DNA from: a virus
Lineage: Duplodnaviria; Heunggongvirae; Uroviricota; Caudoviricetes
Strand: one strand, 5' to 3'
IMG/VR virus record: IMGVR_UViG_2681813261_000023
DNA: 4,182 nucleotides
In this document: piece by piece, positions 1 to 4,182 of the stretch
Layout of the letters: every line of letters begins with the position of its first letter
Numbering within the stretch: the stretch's first letter is position 1
Notes under the pieces: generated by a model
The model's database searches: none
Seen by the model: only the letters and a program-made list of their open reading frames with translations
What the model was told of the DNA's origin: nothing
Position numbers and translations under genes: made by a program

Positions 1-135
1 GCAAACATGGGCTGGCAAAAGTGTAGCGGTATTAAGCGCAGCTATTTACATCAGGATCTAAACTAAAGTATTCTTCAGGTGATAAGCCTCTTTTGTTAAC
101 CATCTTACAAAAGTACTTTAATTCGATATCACCTC

Positions 136-435
136 TTACTTTTTTTCTACTTCATCTACAGGTTTCGCAGTATTGATTAAAGCAATAATTGCTGAGTAAA
201 TTTCATTCTGGATTACAAAATCAATAGAGTTAACATTAATTCGTCCATCAATATCTTCTTCTGCGAAGATAGGATCACCATTTTCATCTTTTACACATAG
301 GATTAGAGTTTTAGCCACATCAGTGCATTTCTGGAAATCCTGACCATTTGGACGATGAATAAAGATGATTTCACCCATTACTTCATGTGGTTTTAATTCT
401 GGTTGTAGTTTTTTCTTCAATTCGTTTAAATTCAT
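136..435 (-). CDS. hypothetical acidic protein (99 aa); position after the tube gene suggests a tail assembly chaperone-like protein
   Basis: The ORF track frame 136..447 begins at a TTG. GGAG (445..442) sits 6 nt upstream of ATG 435..433 and is too close to ATG 441, so start 435 is preferred (MNLNELKKKLQ...). The protein is small, Glu/Asp-rich, and its last sense codons form an A_AAA_AAG heptamer. No family motif recognised by eye. Confidence 0.6.
   Translation of the reverse strand: MNLNELKKKLQPELKPHEVMGEIIFIHRPNGQDFQKCTDVAKTLILCVKDENGDPIFAEEDIDGRINVNSIDFVIQNEIYSAIIALINTAKPVDEVEKK
139..145 (-). promoter_or_regulatory. candidate -1 ribosomal frameshift (or transcriptional slippage) site A_AAA_AAG immediately before the stop codon
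   Basis: The minus-strand reading is GAA AAA AAG TAA (147..136). The heptamer A AAA AAG is in the X_XXY_YYZ register of the zero frame (dnaX-type). The -1 frame continues for 35 codons (VRGDIELKYFCKMVNKRGLSPEEYFSLDPDVNSCA) to TAA at 34..32. Confidence 0.25.
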
Positions 436-445
436 TTTCATCTCC

Positions 446-478
446 AATAAAAAAGGGAAAGTTGAGCACCTTCCCTTT
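446..478 (-). terminator. probable rho-independent terminator/attenuator downstream of the tube-like gene
   Basis: On the minus-strand RNA, AAAGGGAAGGU (478..468) pairs with ACUUUCCCUUU (462..452) as an 11-bp stem with one G-U pair around the loop GCUCA. It is immediately followed by UUUAUU (451..446). It starts 8 nt after the TAA stop (489..487) and is directly followed by GGAG and the next start codon. Confidence 0.45.
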
Positions 479-486
479 ATTTATTA

Positions 487-966
487 TTATTCGCCCGATT
501 CTGGTTTTGGAGTAATCAGACCTGAATCAATTGCTTCACCATCAACTGCAAGGGTGAAAGTCTTAGTTACTACTTCATCTTTATCACCACCGATAGTGGT
601 ACTTGAAACAAAGCAGGTATAAATTACAAAGAAACCTTCTTTTTTAGTTGCATCGGTAAAATAGCTTAGTTTTACCTGACAACGTTTCTGATCGTCTGCA
701 AGTTGTTCTAAATTCTGATGTACTGCATTATCTGGTAAGTAGTTAACTGCAAGAGAAATGTCCGGGATTGACTTAGTACCCAATAGCTTACGATCATAAG
801 CATTATTGAATGTTTTTACGCTAATTACAGTACTTTCAAAGCCTGAAGTACTGAAGGTGTTTACCTCTGGTACTTCTACAAAGTCAGTAGCAACTGTTTT
901 ACCAGCACTTGAACCTACTTCTACAGTAAGGTTAGCACCGGAAAAAATATCCATAGCCATAGCCAT
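487..966 (-). CDS. major tail (tube) protein-like protein, 159 aa
   Basis: ORF with ATG 966..964 preceded by AAGGA (980..976) at 9-nt spacing. The N-terminus has three ATGs (MAMAMDIFSG); the third (954..952) matches the start of the paralogue. Sequence patterns (N-terminal beta-strand LTVEV, SLAVNYLPDN...HQNLEQL..., VVTKTFTLAV) resemble, from memory, the N-domain of lambda gpV-type siphovirus tail tube proteins. Size is also appropriate for a tube protein. Confidence 0.75.
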   Translation of the reverse strand: MAMAMDIFSGANLTVEVGSSAGKTVATDFVEVPEVNTFSTSGFESTVISVKTFNNAYDRKLLGTKSIPDISLAVNYLPDNAVHQNLEQLADDQKRCQVKLSYFTDATKKEGFFVIYTCFVSSTTIGGDKDEVVTKTFTLAVDGEAIDSGLITPKPESGE

Positions 967-979
967 AGTTTTATATCCT

Positions 980-1016
980 TATAAGAAAATTTTATTGGAG
1001 TGAATCCGTTCACCCC
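980..1016 (-). terminator. hairpin followed by a U-rich tract between the fiber gene and the tube-like gene (weak intrinsic terminator or RNA processing/stability element)
   Basis: On the minus-strand RNA, GGGGUGAA (1016..1009) pairs with UUCACUCC (1004..997) as an 8-bp stem with one G-U pair around the tetraloop CGGA. It is followed by AAUAAAAUUUUCUU. The U-tract does not abut the stem, hence low confidence. Confidence 0.3.
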
Positions 1017-1024
1017 GTTTATAT

Positions 1025-3676
1025 TTATTTATTATTTAATAGCTGTTGTACTAAATCTTTTAGCTGATTAATTTCTTCTTGTTGGGCTTGAATAGCTCCC
1101 ATCAAGTCCATCACTATTGGATTTAAATCAACACGTGGATGATCACGAGTGACAATCTCCCCTTCTATTTCAACTGTTTCTTCATCATGCTTAATGTACT
1201 GCGGAGCAGTCAACTCAGCATCTTCGGCGATAACACCAAACCTAACCCTTTCTTGTTCATCATCCTTGTAGATAAACGTTACTAAATCTTGTGACATTAT
1301 CCGATCTAATGCTTCAACTGGATTTGCTGGAGTTATGTCTCTTTTAAACTCACGACCTGATGTACCTTGAGCTTGCATTACTAACCATCCAAACCATGTT
1401 GTACCGTTCCCGCCTCGTACTCTTAAAGTACCACCACCGTCTATCTGAAGCTGAGAGCGATTTGCCCCTGGGTGTCTTTGCATGTGCAATAAAGGGGAAT
1501 ATTTTTCACTATAGTTAATACCTGAGTCACCTGGCCCTGCATACATACCGTTAAAGGTGATGGTATTGGCATCTGTCGGTCCCGAAACAGCGGTATTAGT
1601 CATCCATCCTGATTGAACATCAGTTAGGATCGTTCCAGTCGGCCCTTTTAGCCCCCATAGTTTATCCTCTGCACCATTTTCAGAAATAAAAAGGGTGAGA
1701 TCAGCCTGTCCAGTCTGTCCCATCGTTTTACCAACCCGAAAACCACCAGATATTTCAGTTGATGTACCAATGTTGCATATCGAACGAATACGCCCTCCAG
1801 TTACATAACTACCAATTGCCGTAGAGGAAGGGGAAGAAGCAATAACATCCCATTGAGGACTAACTGAAGTACGACTACTCAGCAAGTTTTCAACCCAGCG
1901 TTTGGTAGTCGCGTCAGAATCAGAGACAGGATCTCCTGCTAAAGAAGTTGCACCCGTAGGACGAATCGCAGGCCATAACTCAGCCTGAGTCTTAACACCA
2001 GTACCGCCCTGCGGAATTGCTAATGCTTTCCAGCCAGTGAAAGCACCCGCAATATATGTAGCTGAACCCCATTGCCCTCCATCATAAACCACTAATGCAG
2101 CGGAAGAATCAGCGGATTTAATAGTTGTTAAATTACTACCTTGATTAAAGCGATCCACCTGAAAGTTTAGGCGAGCACTCAAAGCATCTGTAGCCCCTGT
2201 CCCCCCCTGACCTATACCTAAAGCAATCCATCCAGTACCAGTACTTGCACCCCATGCCCCGTTATCCTGAATTCGGATACGGTTAGTCAGGTCATTACTC
2301 ATCAGATCGGTGTACGTAGCACCCTGAGTCAAACGGTTCACCTGTAGGTTAGTACGTGCTGTAGAGAGACTGGATAGATCAGAAAGGTTACTCGCTTTCT
2401 TCATGGAAGCGGAATCAAGGGAAGTAATACTGTCAGCTAAAGCCGTTACCTCTGCATCTACTTCATCCATTGAGTAAACAGCAAGGTTAATACGTGCTTC
2501 TTCCACGTCCCCCAGATCACTTAGATTACCTGCTATCGTAAGCTGGGCATCATCTGTAACCTTCCCTAAGCCAACATCAGTACTGGTAAGTACTACATCC
2601 TCACTGAGTACATGACCGTTGACCATACGTGTATCAGGTACTGAACCTGTATCTTCACTACTCAGTACTACATTTTCACTAAGTACATGACCGTTCACTG
2701 TACGCGTGTCAGGTACTGAACCTGTATCTTCACTACTCAGTACTATATCTTCACTGAGTACATGACCATTAACTGTCCGTGTATCTGGTACAGAGCCGGT
2801 ATCAGTACTGGTAAGTACTACATCCTCACTTAGAGGCTTACCATTCACAGTACGTGTATCAGGTACTGAACCTGTATCTTCACTGTTCAGTACTAAATTG
2901 GCCGTGAGTGCATGGCCGTTGATGGTACGTGTAAGGGGTACGTATCGCCCGTCCATCTGTGTAGCGGTATATATGCGTGTCCAGGCGGTTGTAGCGTTCT
3001 TTGCATAGATACTTAGAGTACCCGTCTTTGTCATCGCAAGAGAACTTACAGTAGTGCCATCTACAAGCCCTACTCCCATCAGATCCGCCCCGGCAGGATT
3101 GCCTGCTTGAGATGATGGTACTTTGATGAAGCTGTTACCCGTAGGTACTGATGGTGAGTACTGAGGTACATCCGTAGTGTTCGAACCTAAACCGTAGTCC
3201 CCCTGATAGATTGGCGATAGTGCGTTAATGGTCATTGCACGTGCGATCACATCATGTGGGGCAAAACTGTATGCCTTGGTTACTACTGAACCTTTATCAC
3301 CGTCCAACTTATAAGAGGTGATATAACCATTCACCATCGCATAAGTAATGGTATTTTCATCCTTATTCATCTGGTACTGAATGATGATCTGGAAAAGCTG
3401 CTGAGACTTAGCGGCATTATCCAAGAATTGATGTGTAGGATCATCAGGTAGGTAGTTAACTACAATATCAAATGGTGCTACTGATTTATCAGATAGTAGT
3501 ACTGTCCTGTAATCACTATCATACGTTTCAAAATTATTTGCTTCTGAATTTATTGTTAAGGTTGGAAAAGTATTAATCTGTTTAATTACTACATTGCCTG
3601 CTCCCTGTGGTGTTCTGTTACCAATATCAGCATTATACTGTACTGATAATTCTCTTCCTGAGAAAATATCACTCAT
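1025..3676 (-). CDS. tail fiber-like protein (883 aa) with N-terminal tail-tube-like domain, tandem fiber repeats and C-terminal intramolecular chaperone (peptidase S74-like) domain
   Basis: Uninterrupted 2,652-nt ORF. ATG 3676..3674 is preceded by AAGGA (3689..3685) at 8-nt spacing. Residues 1-145 align at about 30% identity with the adjacent 159-aa protein. Residues 249-373 are five tandem 25-aa repeats (TRTVNGHVLSEDVVLSSEDTGSVPD-like). Residues 374-575 carry recurring GGTG...AR.NL.V motifs typical of phage fiber shafts. Residues 771-883 (GTSGREFKRDITP...FGVIAEDAE...VDLNPIVMDLMGAIQAQQEEINQLK) match the pattern I recall for the self-cleaving C-terminal chaperone of tailspikes and fibers (Ser, then Lys five residues later, ...FGVIAqe..., C-terminal helical tail). 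Confidence 0.85.
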   Translation of the reverse strand: MSDIFSGRELSVQYNADIGNRTPQGAGNVVIKQINTFPTLTINSEANNFETYDSDYRTVLLSDKSVAPFDIVVNYLPDDPTHQFLDNAAKSQQLFQIIIQYQMNKDENTITYAMVNGYITSYKLDGDKGSVVTKAYSFAPHDVIARAMTINALSPIYQGDYGLGSNTTDVPQYSPSVPTGNSFIKVPSSQAGNPAGADLMGVGLVDGTTVSSLAMTKTGTLSIYAKNATTAWTRIYTATQMDGRYVPLTRTINGHALTANLVLNSEDTGSVPDTRTVNGKPLSEDVVLTSTDTGSVPDTRTVNGHVLSEDIVLSSEDTGSVPDTRTVNGHVLSENVVLSSEDTGSVPDTRMVNGHVLSEDVVLTSTDVGLGKVTDDAQLTIAGNLSDLGDVEEARINLAVYSMDEVDAEVTALADSITSLDSASMKKASNLSDLSSLSTARTNLQVNRLTQGATYTDLMSNDLTNRIRIQDNGAWGASTGTGWIALGIGQGGTGATDALSARLNFQVDRFNQGSNLTTIKSADSSAALVVYDGGQWGSATYIAGAFTGWKALAIPQGGTGVKTQAELWPAIRPTGATSLAGDPVSDSDATTKRWVENLLSSRTSVSPQWDVIASSPSSTAIGSYVTGGRIRSICNIGTSTEISGGFRVGKTMGQTGQADLTLFISENGAEDKLWGLKGPTGTILTDVQSGWMTNTAVSGPTDANTITFNGMYAGPGDSGINYSEKYSPLLHMQRHPGANRSQLQIDGGGTLRVRGGNGTTWFGWLVMQAQGTSGREFKRDITPANPVEALDRIMSQDLVTFIYKDDEQERVRFGVIAEDAELTAPQYIKHDEETVEIEGEIVTRDHPRVDLNPIVMDLMGAIQAQQEEINQLKDLVQQLLNNK
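1028..1357 (-). other. C-terminal intramolecular chaperone / autoproteolytic domain (aa 774-883), peptidase S74-like
   Basis: The putative catalytic Ser773 (TCA, 1360..1358) and Lys778 (AAA, 1345..1343) have the Ser-x4-Lys spacing I recall for endosialidase-type chaperone domains. They are followed by ITP...ALD...FIYKDD...RFGVIAEDAE...VDLNPIV..L.GAIQA.QEEINQLK, resembling the family consensus. Confidence 0.7.
1952..2266 (-). repeat. divergent internal duplication of a Gly/Trp-rich GGTG module (aa 471-575)
   Basis: The peptide segments DNGAWGASTGTGWIALGIGQGGTGATDALSARLNF and DGGQWGSATYIAGAFTGWKALAIPQGGTGVKTQAELWPAI align. DNA similarity is low, so this is an old duplication seen at protein level only. 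Confidence 0.45.
2558..2932 (-). repeat. five in-frame tandem repeats of 75 bp (25 aa) inside the fiber gene
   Basis: A 40-nt block (gtatcaggtactgaacctgtatcttcactactcagtacta) recurs on the plus strand at about 2631, 2706 and 2857, with a diverged copy at 2781. A second block (tactggtaagtactacatcctcact) recurs at 2581 and 2806, i.e. 3 x 75 apart. The encoded peptide units are residues 249-273, 274-298, 299-323, 324-348 and 349-373. Confidence 0.9.
3242..3676 (-). other. N-terminal tail-tube-like domain of the 883-aa protein (aa 1-145), paralogous to the 159-aa protein
   Basis: Pairwise alignment by eye: MSDIFSGRELSV vs MDIFSGANLTV; NTF; Y..LL.KS.PD; VNYLPDD vs VNYLPDN; HQ.L; GDKGSVVTKAYSFA vs GDKDEVVTKTFTLA. 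The VNYLPD codons are nearly identical at DNA level (3443..3460 vs 730..747, 16 of 18 nt). Confidence 0.65.
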
Positions 3677-3693
3677 CCTTTATATCCTTTTAG

Positions 3694-4086
3694 TTATCTT
3701 GTCTTTTCCGTAACTTGAATATTTATCGTAAAGGATAGGGAAACCGAGCCAGTTATAGGATCTGTGACAATATCGGATTGTTCATAAGAACACGAAAGCA
3801 TTATTAAACCTGCATCACTGAATGCTGAAGTTTTCTCTTTATCAAAAGTACTAATAATCTGATCATAAGTGATGGATGGGGCTGTATTACCTGATTCTGG
3901 TTTAGGGGAAATCAGATACTGAATTGCAAAGTTACCTGCCCGGCGTTCATTGCTGAAACTTAAACTCGTTAATGAGTAATCAAAAGCAATTTGTTCAAAT
4001 ACATCAACATCACGTGATACTGTCAGATTCTTAGTAGCATTGATAAGCTGCTTCATCGTATTCCGTACTTTTTGTACTAACATCAT
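3694..4086 (-). CDS. hypothetical small protein (130 aa); size and position suggest a tail terminator / tail completion-type protein
   Basis: The ORF track gives an open frame 3694..4158 (-) whose first codon is GTG at 4158 with no Shine-Dalgarno. The ATG at 4086..4084 is preceded by AGAGGA (4100..4095) at 8-nt spacing, so the 130-aa form MMLVQKVRNT... is preferred. Stop TAA 3696..3694 lies 17 nt upstream of the next start. No family motif recognised by eye; function is inferred only from size and position immediately upstream of the tube-like genes. Confidence 0.55.
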   Translation of the reverse strand: MMLVQKVRNTMKQLINATKNLTVSRDVDVFEQIAFDYSLTSLSFSNERRAGNFAIQYLISPKPESGNTAPSITYDQIISTFDKEKTSAFSDAGLIMLSCSYEQSDIVTDPITGSVSLSFTINIQVTEKTR

Positions 4087-4182
4087 ATTAGTAGTCCTCT
4101 GCAAATGAAGCACCAGCAGAATGGATTTGCCCCTATATTTCCAGACATCTGTTATCACTTAACCCATTACAAGCCCGCTGCC

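Follow-up and report, generated by a model that had tools for sequence, protein, structure and literature searches.

The window (the whole stretch of DNA that was analyzed, 4,182 nt) belongs to the IMG/VR virus record IMGVR_UViG_2681813261_000023, assigned to the Caudoviricetes. The minus strand carries all genes of the window. In the order of transcription they encode proteins of 130, 883, 159, and 99–103 aa, followed by the first codons of a further open reading frame (ORF). The main subject here is the 883-aa protein. Its N-terminal domain (N-domain) is a paralogue of the 159-aa protein, which is the tail tube protein (TTP), and the remainder of the chain is a long fiber that ends in a Peptidase_S74 chaperone domain. 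This duplication and fusion is real, ancient, conserved, and widespread. With moderate confidence we consider the 883-aa protein as the side (lateral) tail fiber of this phage lineage, anchored in the stack of tube rings via its N-terminal ~250 residues.

The tail tube protein and its fiber-bearing paralogue

The 159-aa protein scored 34.0 bits against the Pfam family Phage_tail_3 (PF08813; cut-off 24.2) and gave weaker matches to PF16460, PF16461, and PF06199. PHROG 158 (major tail protein) matched it with an E value of 4.6e-20. In all loci, its gene is located directly upstream of the genes for the tail assembly chaperone and the tape measure protein, with the fiber gene one position further upstream. 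The chaperone gene is followed by a second chaperone ORF in the -1 frame and by genes for a 737-aa tape measure protein, a protein similar to the distal tail protein (Dit; PHROG 1302), and a J-like tip protein. An earlier note on this DNA, made from the sequence alone, had tentatively taken the small protein as the tube subunit, and the Pfam and PHROG matches agree with this. The length of 159 aa given there is valid for the window, in which the start of the TTP gene contains a 6-nt tandem duplication (ATGGCT, 955–966), and other copies have 157 aa: the protein begins with MAMAMDIF here vs. MAMDIF in the other copies (L002–L005, L021).

BLASTP aligned the 159-aa protein with residues 3–139 of the 883-aa protein (E = 3e-19), with 42 identities over 137 positions (31%). 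The two domains are equal in length and the alignment contains a single 2-residue gap; the fiber N-domain thus retains every loop of the tube protein. Comparison of 14 fiber N-domains with 26 small TTPs by hhalign yielded a probability of 99.9% (E = 1.5e-32, 138 columns). A hidden Markov model (HMM) built from small TTPs only matched the N-termini of all large proteins examined (E values from 1e-18 to 1e-26; 5e-25 for the window N-domain), and PHROG 158 matched residues 2–150 of the 883-aa protein (E = 1.3e-16). No match of the window N-domain to Pfam TTP families was found at E ≤ 1, and PDB sequence searches with profiles built for the TTP-like domain and the 130-aa protein gave nothing meaningful; since the latter searches were uninformative, fold prediction was required. 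PHROG 158 and hhalign thus placed the domain in the tube family, whereas the Pfam and PDB sequence searches, of the kind proposed in the earlier note, were blank for it. Judged by sequence, the fiber N-domain is clearly homologous to the TTP, though it missed the Pfam curated cut-off.

Four motifs are kept in both paralogue families: the N-terminal DIFxG, the loop tip (E/K)T(Y/F)(D/N)SxY, VNYxPD, and GDKDxVVxK. The VNYLPD codons at 730..747 and 3443..3460 (GTTAACTACTTACCAGAT and GTTAACTACCTACCTGAT, respectively) are identical at 16 of 18 positions. The 11-mer AAGGATATAAA occurs exactly twice in the window, each time 8–9 nt before a start codon, where it forms the Shine-Dalgarno context; 0.15 matches are expected by chance, and two were reached in 1 of 200 shuffles. 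The paralogy at ~30% identity, the near-identity of the VNYLPD codons in DNA, and the common initiation context had all been pointed out before, and all three were reproduced. The proteins encoded by the fiber gene (in its N-domain) and the TTP gene are only 29–31% identical and form distinct clades in all loci. Because the two paralogue clades separate in every genome, the duplication is older than the radiation of the lineage.

An AlphaFold2 (AF2) model of residues 1–261 was obtained from a 39-sequence alignment, with a mean predicted local distance difference test (pLDDT) score of 72 and values of 85–94 in the tube-type core of the N-domain. The predicted fold, consisting of a beta-sandwich, a helix, and a long hairpin, is that of tube proteins. 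In a Foldseek search against PDB, the best matches of the N-domain were the tube proteins of 80alpha, NF5, lambda (gpV), YDC107, Sf11, and monocin (E ~1e-7), and the top 22 matches were all siphophage or F-tailocin tube proteins (E values from 1e-7 to 1e-5). Tubes of contractile systems and Hcp ranked after them. Neither of the outcomes that the note had named as speaking against it, placement in a non-tube family or lack of significant similarity between the two proteins, was found.

Residues 155–175 are predicted to be a disordered linker, and the following "middle domain" is modeled as a five-strand beta-sandwich with strands at positions 182–237 (pLDDT about 70–78). It had no match in Pfam and PHROG. 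As full-length lambda gpV (about 255 columns) and two-domain major tail proteins from BFVD align across both domains of the model, the middle domain probably corresponds to the immunoglobulin/fibronectin type III (Ig/FN3)-like decoration domain.

The fiber part starts with five tandem repeats, detected by Tandem Repeats Finder as a period of 75 at 2589..2895 (4.1 copies, 80% matches). PHROG tail fiber families matched residues 244–879 (E values from 1e-34 to 1e-37), and tblastn retrieved T5-like LtfB as well as lateral tail fibers of E. coli and Salmonella phages. The C-terminal residues 774–822 of 883 matched Pfam PF13884 with 34.1 bits (gathering cut-off 22). Ser773 (codon 1358–1360) and Lys778 (codon 1343–1345) are located in the motif TSGREFK, where the Pfam match starts (Ser at model position 1). 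The Ser-x4-Lys spacing was also present in relatives (SDARLK, SDINTK), and we take these residues to be the S74 catalytic pair, as Ser911/Lys916 of the K1F endosialidase. S74-type fibers are trimers, in which the chaperone domain folds the fiber and is then cleaved off. Taken together, PHROG 158, PF13884, and Foldseek bear out the earlier proposal of a tube-domain duplication and a fusion with a long fiber that ends in an S74 chaperone. The middle domain within the anchor, the terminator upstream, the lineage-wide arrangement, and the disruption of the prophage copy by insertion sequences (IS) go beyond that note. Coordinates of all features are given in Table 1.

Table 1. Features of the window, listed by increasing coordinate.
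Feature	Coordinates	Strand	Evidence or remarks
End of IS630-family element	1–46; junction TA 47–48		
Further ORF, first codons only	starts at 103	–	
Tail assembly chaperone, G-like, 99–103 aa	136..447	–	PHROG 344, E 1.6e-6; Pfam Phage_TAC_13, weak
Terminator-like hairpin, 11-bp stem then T-run, TTTATTGG	452..478	–	Directly past the TTP stop codon
Tail tube protein, 159 aa	487..966	–	Phage_tail_3, PHROG 158, gene position
Shine-Dalgarno context AAGGATATAAA of the TTP gene	970..980	–	Identical to that of the fiber gene
Fiber protein, 883 aa	1025..3676	–	
Peptidase_S74 intramolecular chaperone, residues 773–883	1028..1360; stop codon 1025–1027	–	PF13884
Shaft and distal, presumed receptor-binding part, residues 374–772	1361..2557	–	PHROG, tblastn
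Five tandem 25-aa fiber repeats (TRTVNGHVLSEDVVLSSEDTGSVPD), residues 249–373	2558..2932	–	Protein repeats and Tandem Repeats Finder
Predicted disordered linker (155–175) and small beta-sandwich "middle domain", residues 151–250	2927..3226	–	AF2
TTP-paralogue domain, proposed virion anchor, residues 1–150	3227..3676	–	BLASTP, PHROG 158, hhalign, AF2/Foldseek
Shine-Dalgarno context AAGGATATAAA of the fiber gene	3679..3689	–	
Tail terminator, lambda gpU-like by predicted fold, 130 aa	3694..4086	–	
End of IS2	4122–4182		100% identity

Gene order and conservation across the lineage

Related loci were gathered starting from the small TTP. They comprised four further assembly contexts, nine Enterobacterales loci from a species-representative genome set (nine genera), and 64 IMG/VR loci. 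Every locus covering the region contained genes for a portal protein, a protease-capsid fusion, a stopper-like protein, and a terminator, then the fiber gene, which encodes the TTP-like domain, the middle domain, and a long variable C-terminus (548–1351 aa), and, past it, genes for the TTP, chaperone, tape measure, Dit-like protein, two small tail proteins, and a J-like tip protein. This synteny was invariant in 14 genome loci and the 64 IMG/VR loci, of which ~70 span the region, and a few copies were visibly degraded. No other long fiber gene was seen in the loci examined. The family is common in prophages of Escherichia/Shigella, Klebsiella/Raoultella, Enterobacter, Serratia, and related genera. 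In public databases the fiber protein is labeled as "tail fiber domain-containing protein", "Peptidase S74 domain-containing protein", or hypothetical.

When 1.84 billion cluster representatives were searched exhaustively with a profile, 178 matches were obtained. Among them, 108 were long proteins (468–1563 aa; 50% clustering level) with the domain at residues 1–150. The middle domain was present in 103 of these 108 long representatives, and an S74 tail like that of the window in only 26. With 74% mean identity, the TTP was conserved best within the module, and the N-domain ranked among its less conserved parts (47%). In pairwise comparisons, the divergence of the N-domain plus middle domain tracked that of the tail core proteins (rho 0.6–0.85), whereas the divergence of the fiber part was uncoupled from the tail core (rho 0.13). 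Because of this difference we regard the 250-residue module as the conserved anchor of an exchangeable fiber; such a pattern is classically seen where a conserved module for attachment to the virion is combined with a receptor-binding part that is exchanged horizontally.

In L006, L010, and other loci, the interval between the capsid and fiber genes held two small genes only, encoding a stopper-like protein of ~105 aa and the terminator of ~130 aa, and no tail completion gene of the lambda gpZ type was recognized between the capsid and tube genes. The protease-capsid fusion combines Peptidase_S78 and Phage_capsid domains in about 600 aa.

Proposed attachment of the fiber to the tail

Side fibers of long-tailed phages are known to attach to proteins of the baseplate, collar, or tip. 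In this lineage, the N-terminal 250-residue module is very probably the fiber anchor, and it is plausible, as the earlier note had proposed, that the fibers form part of the tube lattice or dock on it instead of being attached at the baseplate or tip. We infer the incorporation into the tube, its stoichiometry, and its axial position, and propose the following arrangement. The S74 chaperone would drive trimerization and folding of the fiber and would then cut itself at Ser773, as known for its family. The resulting trimer would bear three tube-type "feet" on flexible linkers of ~20 residues, and these feet would take positions of tube subunits in the stack of tube-fold rings. We place them in the ring stack because the N-domain keeps the length, the loops, and the contact-loop motifs of the TTP; in lambda, the ring-to-ring contacts are formed by the N-terminal loop, the extended loop, and the C-terminal loop (PMC10721106). 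In the simplest arrangement, two trimers would make up one hexameric ring with two fibers per ring. Such a ring would stack on ordinary TTP rings by the retained N-arm, the tip of the extended loop, and the core surfaces, with the sandwich domain and the fiber facing outward.

Since the terminator and Dit are encoded by separate genes, the N-domain would be an additional component of the tube-fold ring set. Two other assignments of the N-domain were considered and rejected: that of terminator, which was suggested by the scarcity of small genes in the capsid–tube interval, because the terminator fold is predicted for the 130-aa protein, and that of Dit, because a separate 185-aa Dit-like gene is located after the tape measure gene (PHROG 1302, E = 8e-17).

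As to the axial position, we tentatively favor one by the Dit, though at somewhat less than an even chance; a position under the terminator, a presence in several rings, and a location outside the stack appear unlikely to an equal degree. The evidence fits a single specialized ring, by the Dit near the tip or by the terminator, as well as it fits fibers on the tube lattice away from the tip. The fiber gene adjoins the terminator gene, which suggests the head-proximal end, while the receptor-binding role and the analogy with tube-initiator paralogues of contractile systems suggest the Dit-proximal end. In a mirror-tree analysis, which was weak, noisy, and partly uninterpretable for the N-domain and is confounded by genetic linkage, the partial correlations of the N-domain were 0.45 with the chaperone (5–95% range 0.30–0.57), 0.34 with the capsid, 0.25 with Dit, 0.19 with TTP, and 0.09 with the terminator. 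The expected pairs were recovered (terminator–stopper, 0.51; Dit–next tail gene, 0.62). These values are at most a hint against a terminator-proximal position. A more speculative variant, which we hold to be doubtful, is that the fiber-bearing paralogue forms one or several obligatory rings, for instance the first ring on the Dit, with the feet nucleating tube growth. If so, fiber attachment and tube assembly would be one step, and the conduit would carry the host-range determinant via a 6-to-3 mismatch, or fibers would line the whole tail.

Several points weigh against the incorporation of the fiber into the tube stack. The mean identity of the N-domain is 39–47% vs. 67–74% for the TTP. The strands of the long hairpin of the N-domain and the segment corresponding to the C-terminal arm of the TTP are not conserved, and on this sequence evidence some of the tube contacts may be missing in the N-domain. 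Trimeric fibers on a hexameric ring require a 6-to-3 mismatch. The fiber gene is located beside the terminator gene and away from the tip genes, the usual site of side-fiber genes. The weak mirror-tree analysis showed an unexplained correlation of the N-domain with the capsid. The home of the window copy is an IS-disrupted prophage, and the presence of the 883-aa protein in virions or in the tube is a prediction.

We prefer a specialized position to general copolymerization because of the lower conservation and the unconstrained hairpin strands and C-terminal arm segment. According to the latter alternative, which we regard as rather unlikely, fiber trimers would be inserted at many positions of the tube and fibers would be distributed along the whole tail, comparable to SPP1 gp17.1* and lambda gpV. 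Such a copolymer is consistent with an N-domain that has the whole length and every loop of a tube protein, with the ribosome-binding context shared with the TTP gene, and with the gpV-like outward domain. A subunit distributed over the lattice should, however, be constrained like the TTP, while the mean identities are 47% vs. 74% and the hairpin strands are unconstrained; dozens of fibers of 500–1100 residues per tail would be bulky, and a pre-formed trimer would have to set three feet close together.

The relaxed constraint could also mean that the N-domain is a docking or assembly domain off the tube, a TTP mimic that binds the exterior of the tube or tip or an assembly factor such as the chaperone. 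The highest partial co-variation, that with the tail assembly chaperone, and the failure of Pfam tube models to detect the window N-domain point in the same direction. We nevertheless consider this reading unlikely: the N-arm and the loop tip, which make ring-to-ring contacts in lambda (PMC10721106), are among the motifs that the N-domain has in common with the TTP, and the predicted fold is that of a complete tube protein.

For the window copy only, and not for the family, one may suppose that the gene is decaying and now functionless in this genome, given that in this strain the stopper gene is cut short by IS2 and the chaperone T-ORF is broken by IS630 and that some relatives have split or truncated fiber genes (L008/L009, L026, L033, L073). 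This is very unlikely, since the reading frame is undamaged, with 99.8% identity to that of IS-free prophages, and the full-length gene is kept in most of the ~70 loci. Finally, the common tube fold and translation start context would also allow the large protein to be the actual major subunit of the tube, with the small protein as a minor or specialized component, which is highly improbable, as it is the small protein that exceeds the Pfam TTP cut-off, directly precedes the chaperone and tape measure genes, is the most conserved of the module, and is followed by the terminator-like hairpin, while the fiber C-terminus is freely swapped among relatives.

The proposed anchoring of the fiber in the tube stack was also compared with known systems. 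Decorated tube proteins, such as lambda gpV, SPP1 gp17.1*, and lactococcal TpeX, carry a C-terminal Ig/FN3-like domain. As in gpV, the tube-fold domain of the 883-aa protein is followed by a small beta-sandwich that would face outward. In the gpV-type proteins, however, the decoration is borne by the major tube protein itself or its frameshift form and consists of one small domain, whereas here the TTP is undecorated and a separate diverged paralogue, encoded by its own gene, bears a fiber of 300–1100 residues. T4 gp48/gp54 and Afp5/Pvc5 are tube paralogues that form defined rings at the tube start. They similarly represent a duplicated tube-fold protein beside the main tube protein, and tube chains of extracellular contractile injection systems were among the Foldseek matches of the N-domain model; unlike the 883-aa protein, they belong to contractile systems and are without a fiber. 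Evolved Hcp proteins of type VI secretion also combine a tube-fold subunit with a C-terminal functional extension, and Hcp structures were distant fold matches. The cargo of evolved Hcp points into the lumen or is a delivered toxin rather than a receptor-binding fiber, and Hcp is not a phage component. Dit proteins, including "evolved" Dits with carbohydrate-binding modules, likewise provide a tube-fold hexameric ring as a platform for host-binding appendages, but by sequence the fiber N-domain is closely paralogous to the TTP and not to the Dit, and the lineage has its own 185-aa Dit-like gene.

The distal part of the fiber and its S74 chaperone are homologous to those of T5-type fibers (pb1; LtfA/LtfB of DT57C), with 47% identity to LtfB segments by tblastn, and reversible host binding is the presumed role in both cases. 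As described in PMC10713586 and generally held, T5-type fibers dock N-terminally on a separate collar protein around the tube-tip junction, whereas here the fiber N-terminus itself is a paralogue of the tube protein. None of the compared systems joins a separate TTP paralogue to a long trimeric fiber. No description of a tube-protein/fiber fusion was found in the full-text literature, the coverage of which was incomplete, so that this is absence of evidence only.

If the N-terminus of the fiber acts as a tube subunit, it would represent a different principle of fiber attachment and a new member of the set of tube-fold rings, which includes the hub, the distal tail protein, the tube, and the terminator. 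The conserved 250-residue anchor with its swapped distal part marks a junction where the host range of these phages could be re-engineered, and the anchor sequence provides a signature by which the host-range gene of such prophages can be located.

The host prophage and neighboring genes

The window is a piece of a decaying Shigella sonnei prophage, though the ORFs in the window are intact. This status is based on the disruption by IS2 and IS630 and on the provenance of the 883-aa protein, which in exactly this form is present in many S. sonnei assemblies. Comparison with the intact prophage L021 showed that IS2 was inserted 34 nt short of the stop codon of a gene for a 107-aa stopper-like protein, that is, 35 nt upstream of the ATG of the terminator gene, and truncates the stopper gene. 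The IS2 point is a contig break in all S. sonnei contigs bearing the fiber gene. The IS630-family element was inserted ~19 codons into a 120-aa ORF after the chaperone gene, presumed to be the "T" part of the -1 frameshift. Its insertion is missing in the other S. sonnei copies (L002–L005) and is thus strain-specific. IS-free copies of the prophage are present in the IMG/VR contigs L021 and L022, which are 99.8% identical to the window over positions 47–4121. A megablast search of the window against complete E. coli genomes gave no match.

The 130-aa protein had no match in Pfam, PHROG, and PDB sequences. Its predicted fold is that of tail terminators, and by this fold and its gene position it is the tail terminator. 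In relatives, the gene of ~105 aa before the terminator gene showed weak likeness to lambda FII and head-closure proteins. The terminator-like hairpin between the TTP and chaperone genes may set a high ratio of the TTP to the downstream tail proteins. In addition, an imperfect hairpin was noticed by eye on the minus strand at 997–1016, in the gap between the fiber stop codon and the TTP start (GGGGTGAA-CGGA-TTCACTCC, with an A/T-rich run after it); it was not among the results of the terminator scan.

Some relatives differed in the organization of the fiber gene. In one E. coli sub-lineage (L008/L009, 4267–7918), the fiber of 840 aa (or 588 + 259 aa) is accompanied by a separate S74 ORF of 254 aa, which represents either a decayed gene or a two-gene arrangement. 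In locus L006, a 75-aa ORF (7716–7943) follows an 815-aa fiber without the S74 tail and is possibly a separate fiber assembly chaperone.

Among the GenBank phage records, only that of Escherichia phage DCP80 (PQ671644; L001/L085) has a related module. This record looks chimeric: approximately the first 23 kb (~1–23 kb) contain a siphovirus-type module (terminator-like protein, TTP-like fiber, second fiber gene, TTP, tape measure, Dit), and the remainder is T4-like, with motA, rIIA twice in opposite orientations, spackle twice, and gp41/44/59, its taxonomy line being Straboviridae. For this reason DCP80 was not accepted as an isolated relative, and its genome size and taxonomy were not relied on. 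The second fiber gene of its module (L001, 10899–13136) is placed between the TTP-like fiber gene and the TTP gene. It encodes a protein of 745 aa with a glycine-rich N-terminal region and without a tube-like domain, which could be part of a branched or two-component fiber, as in DT57C.

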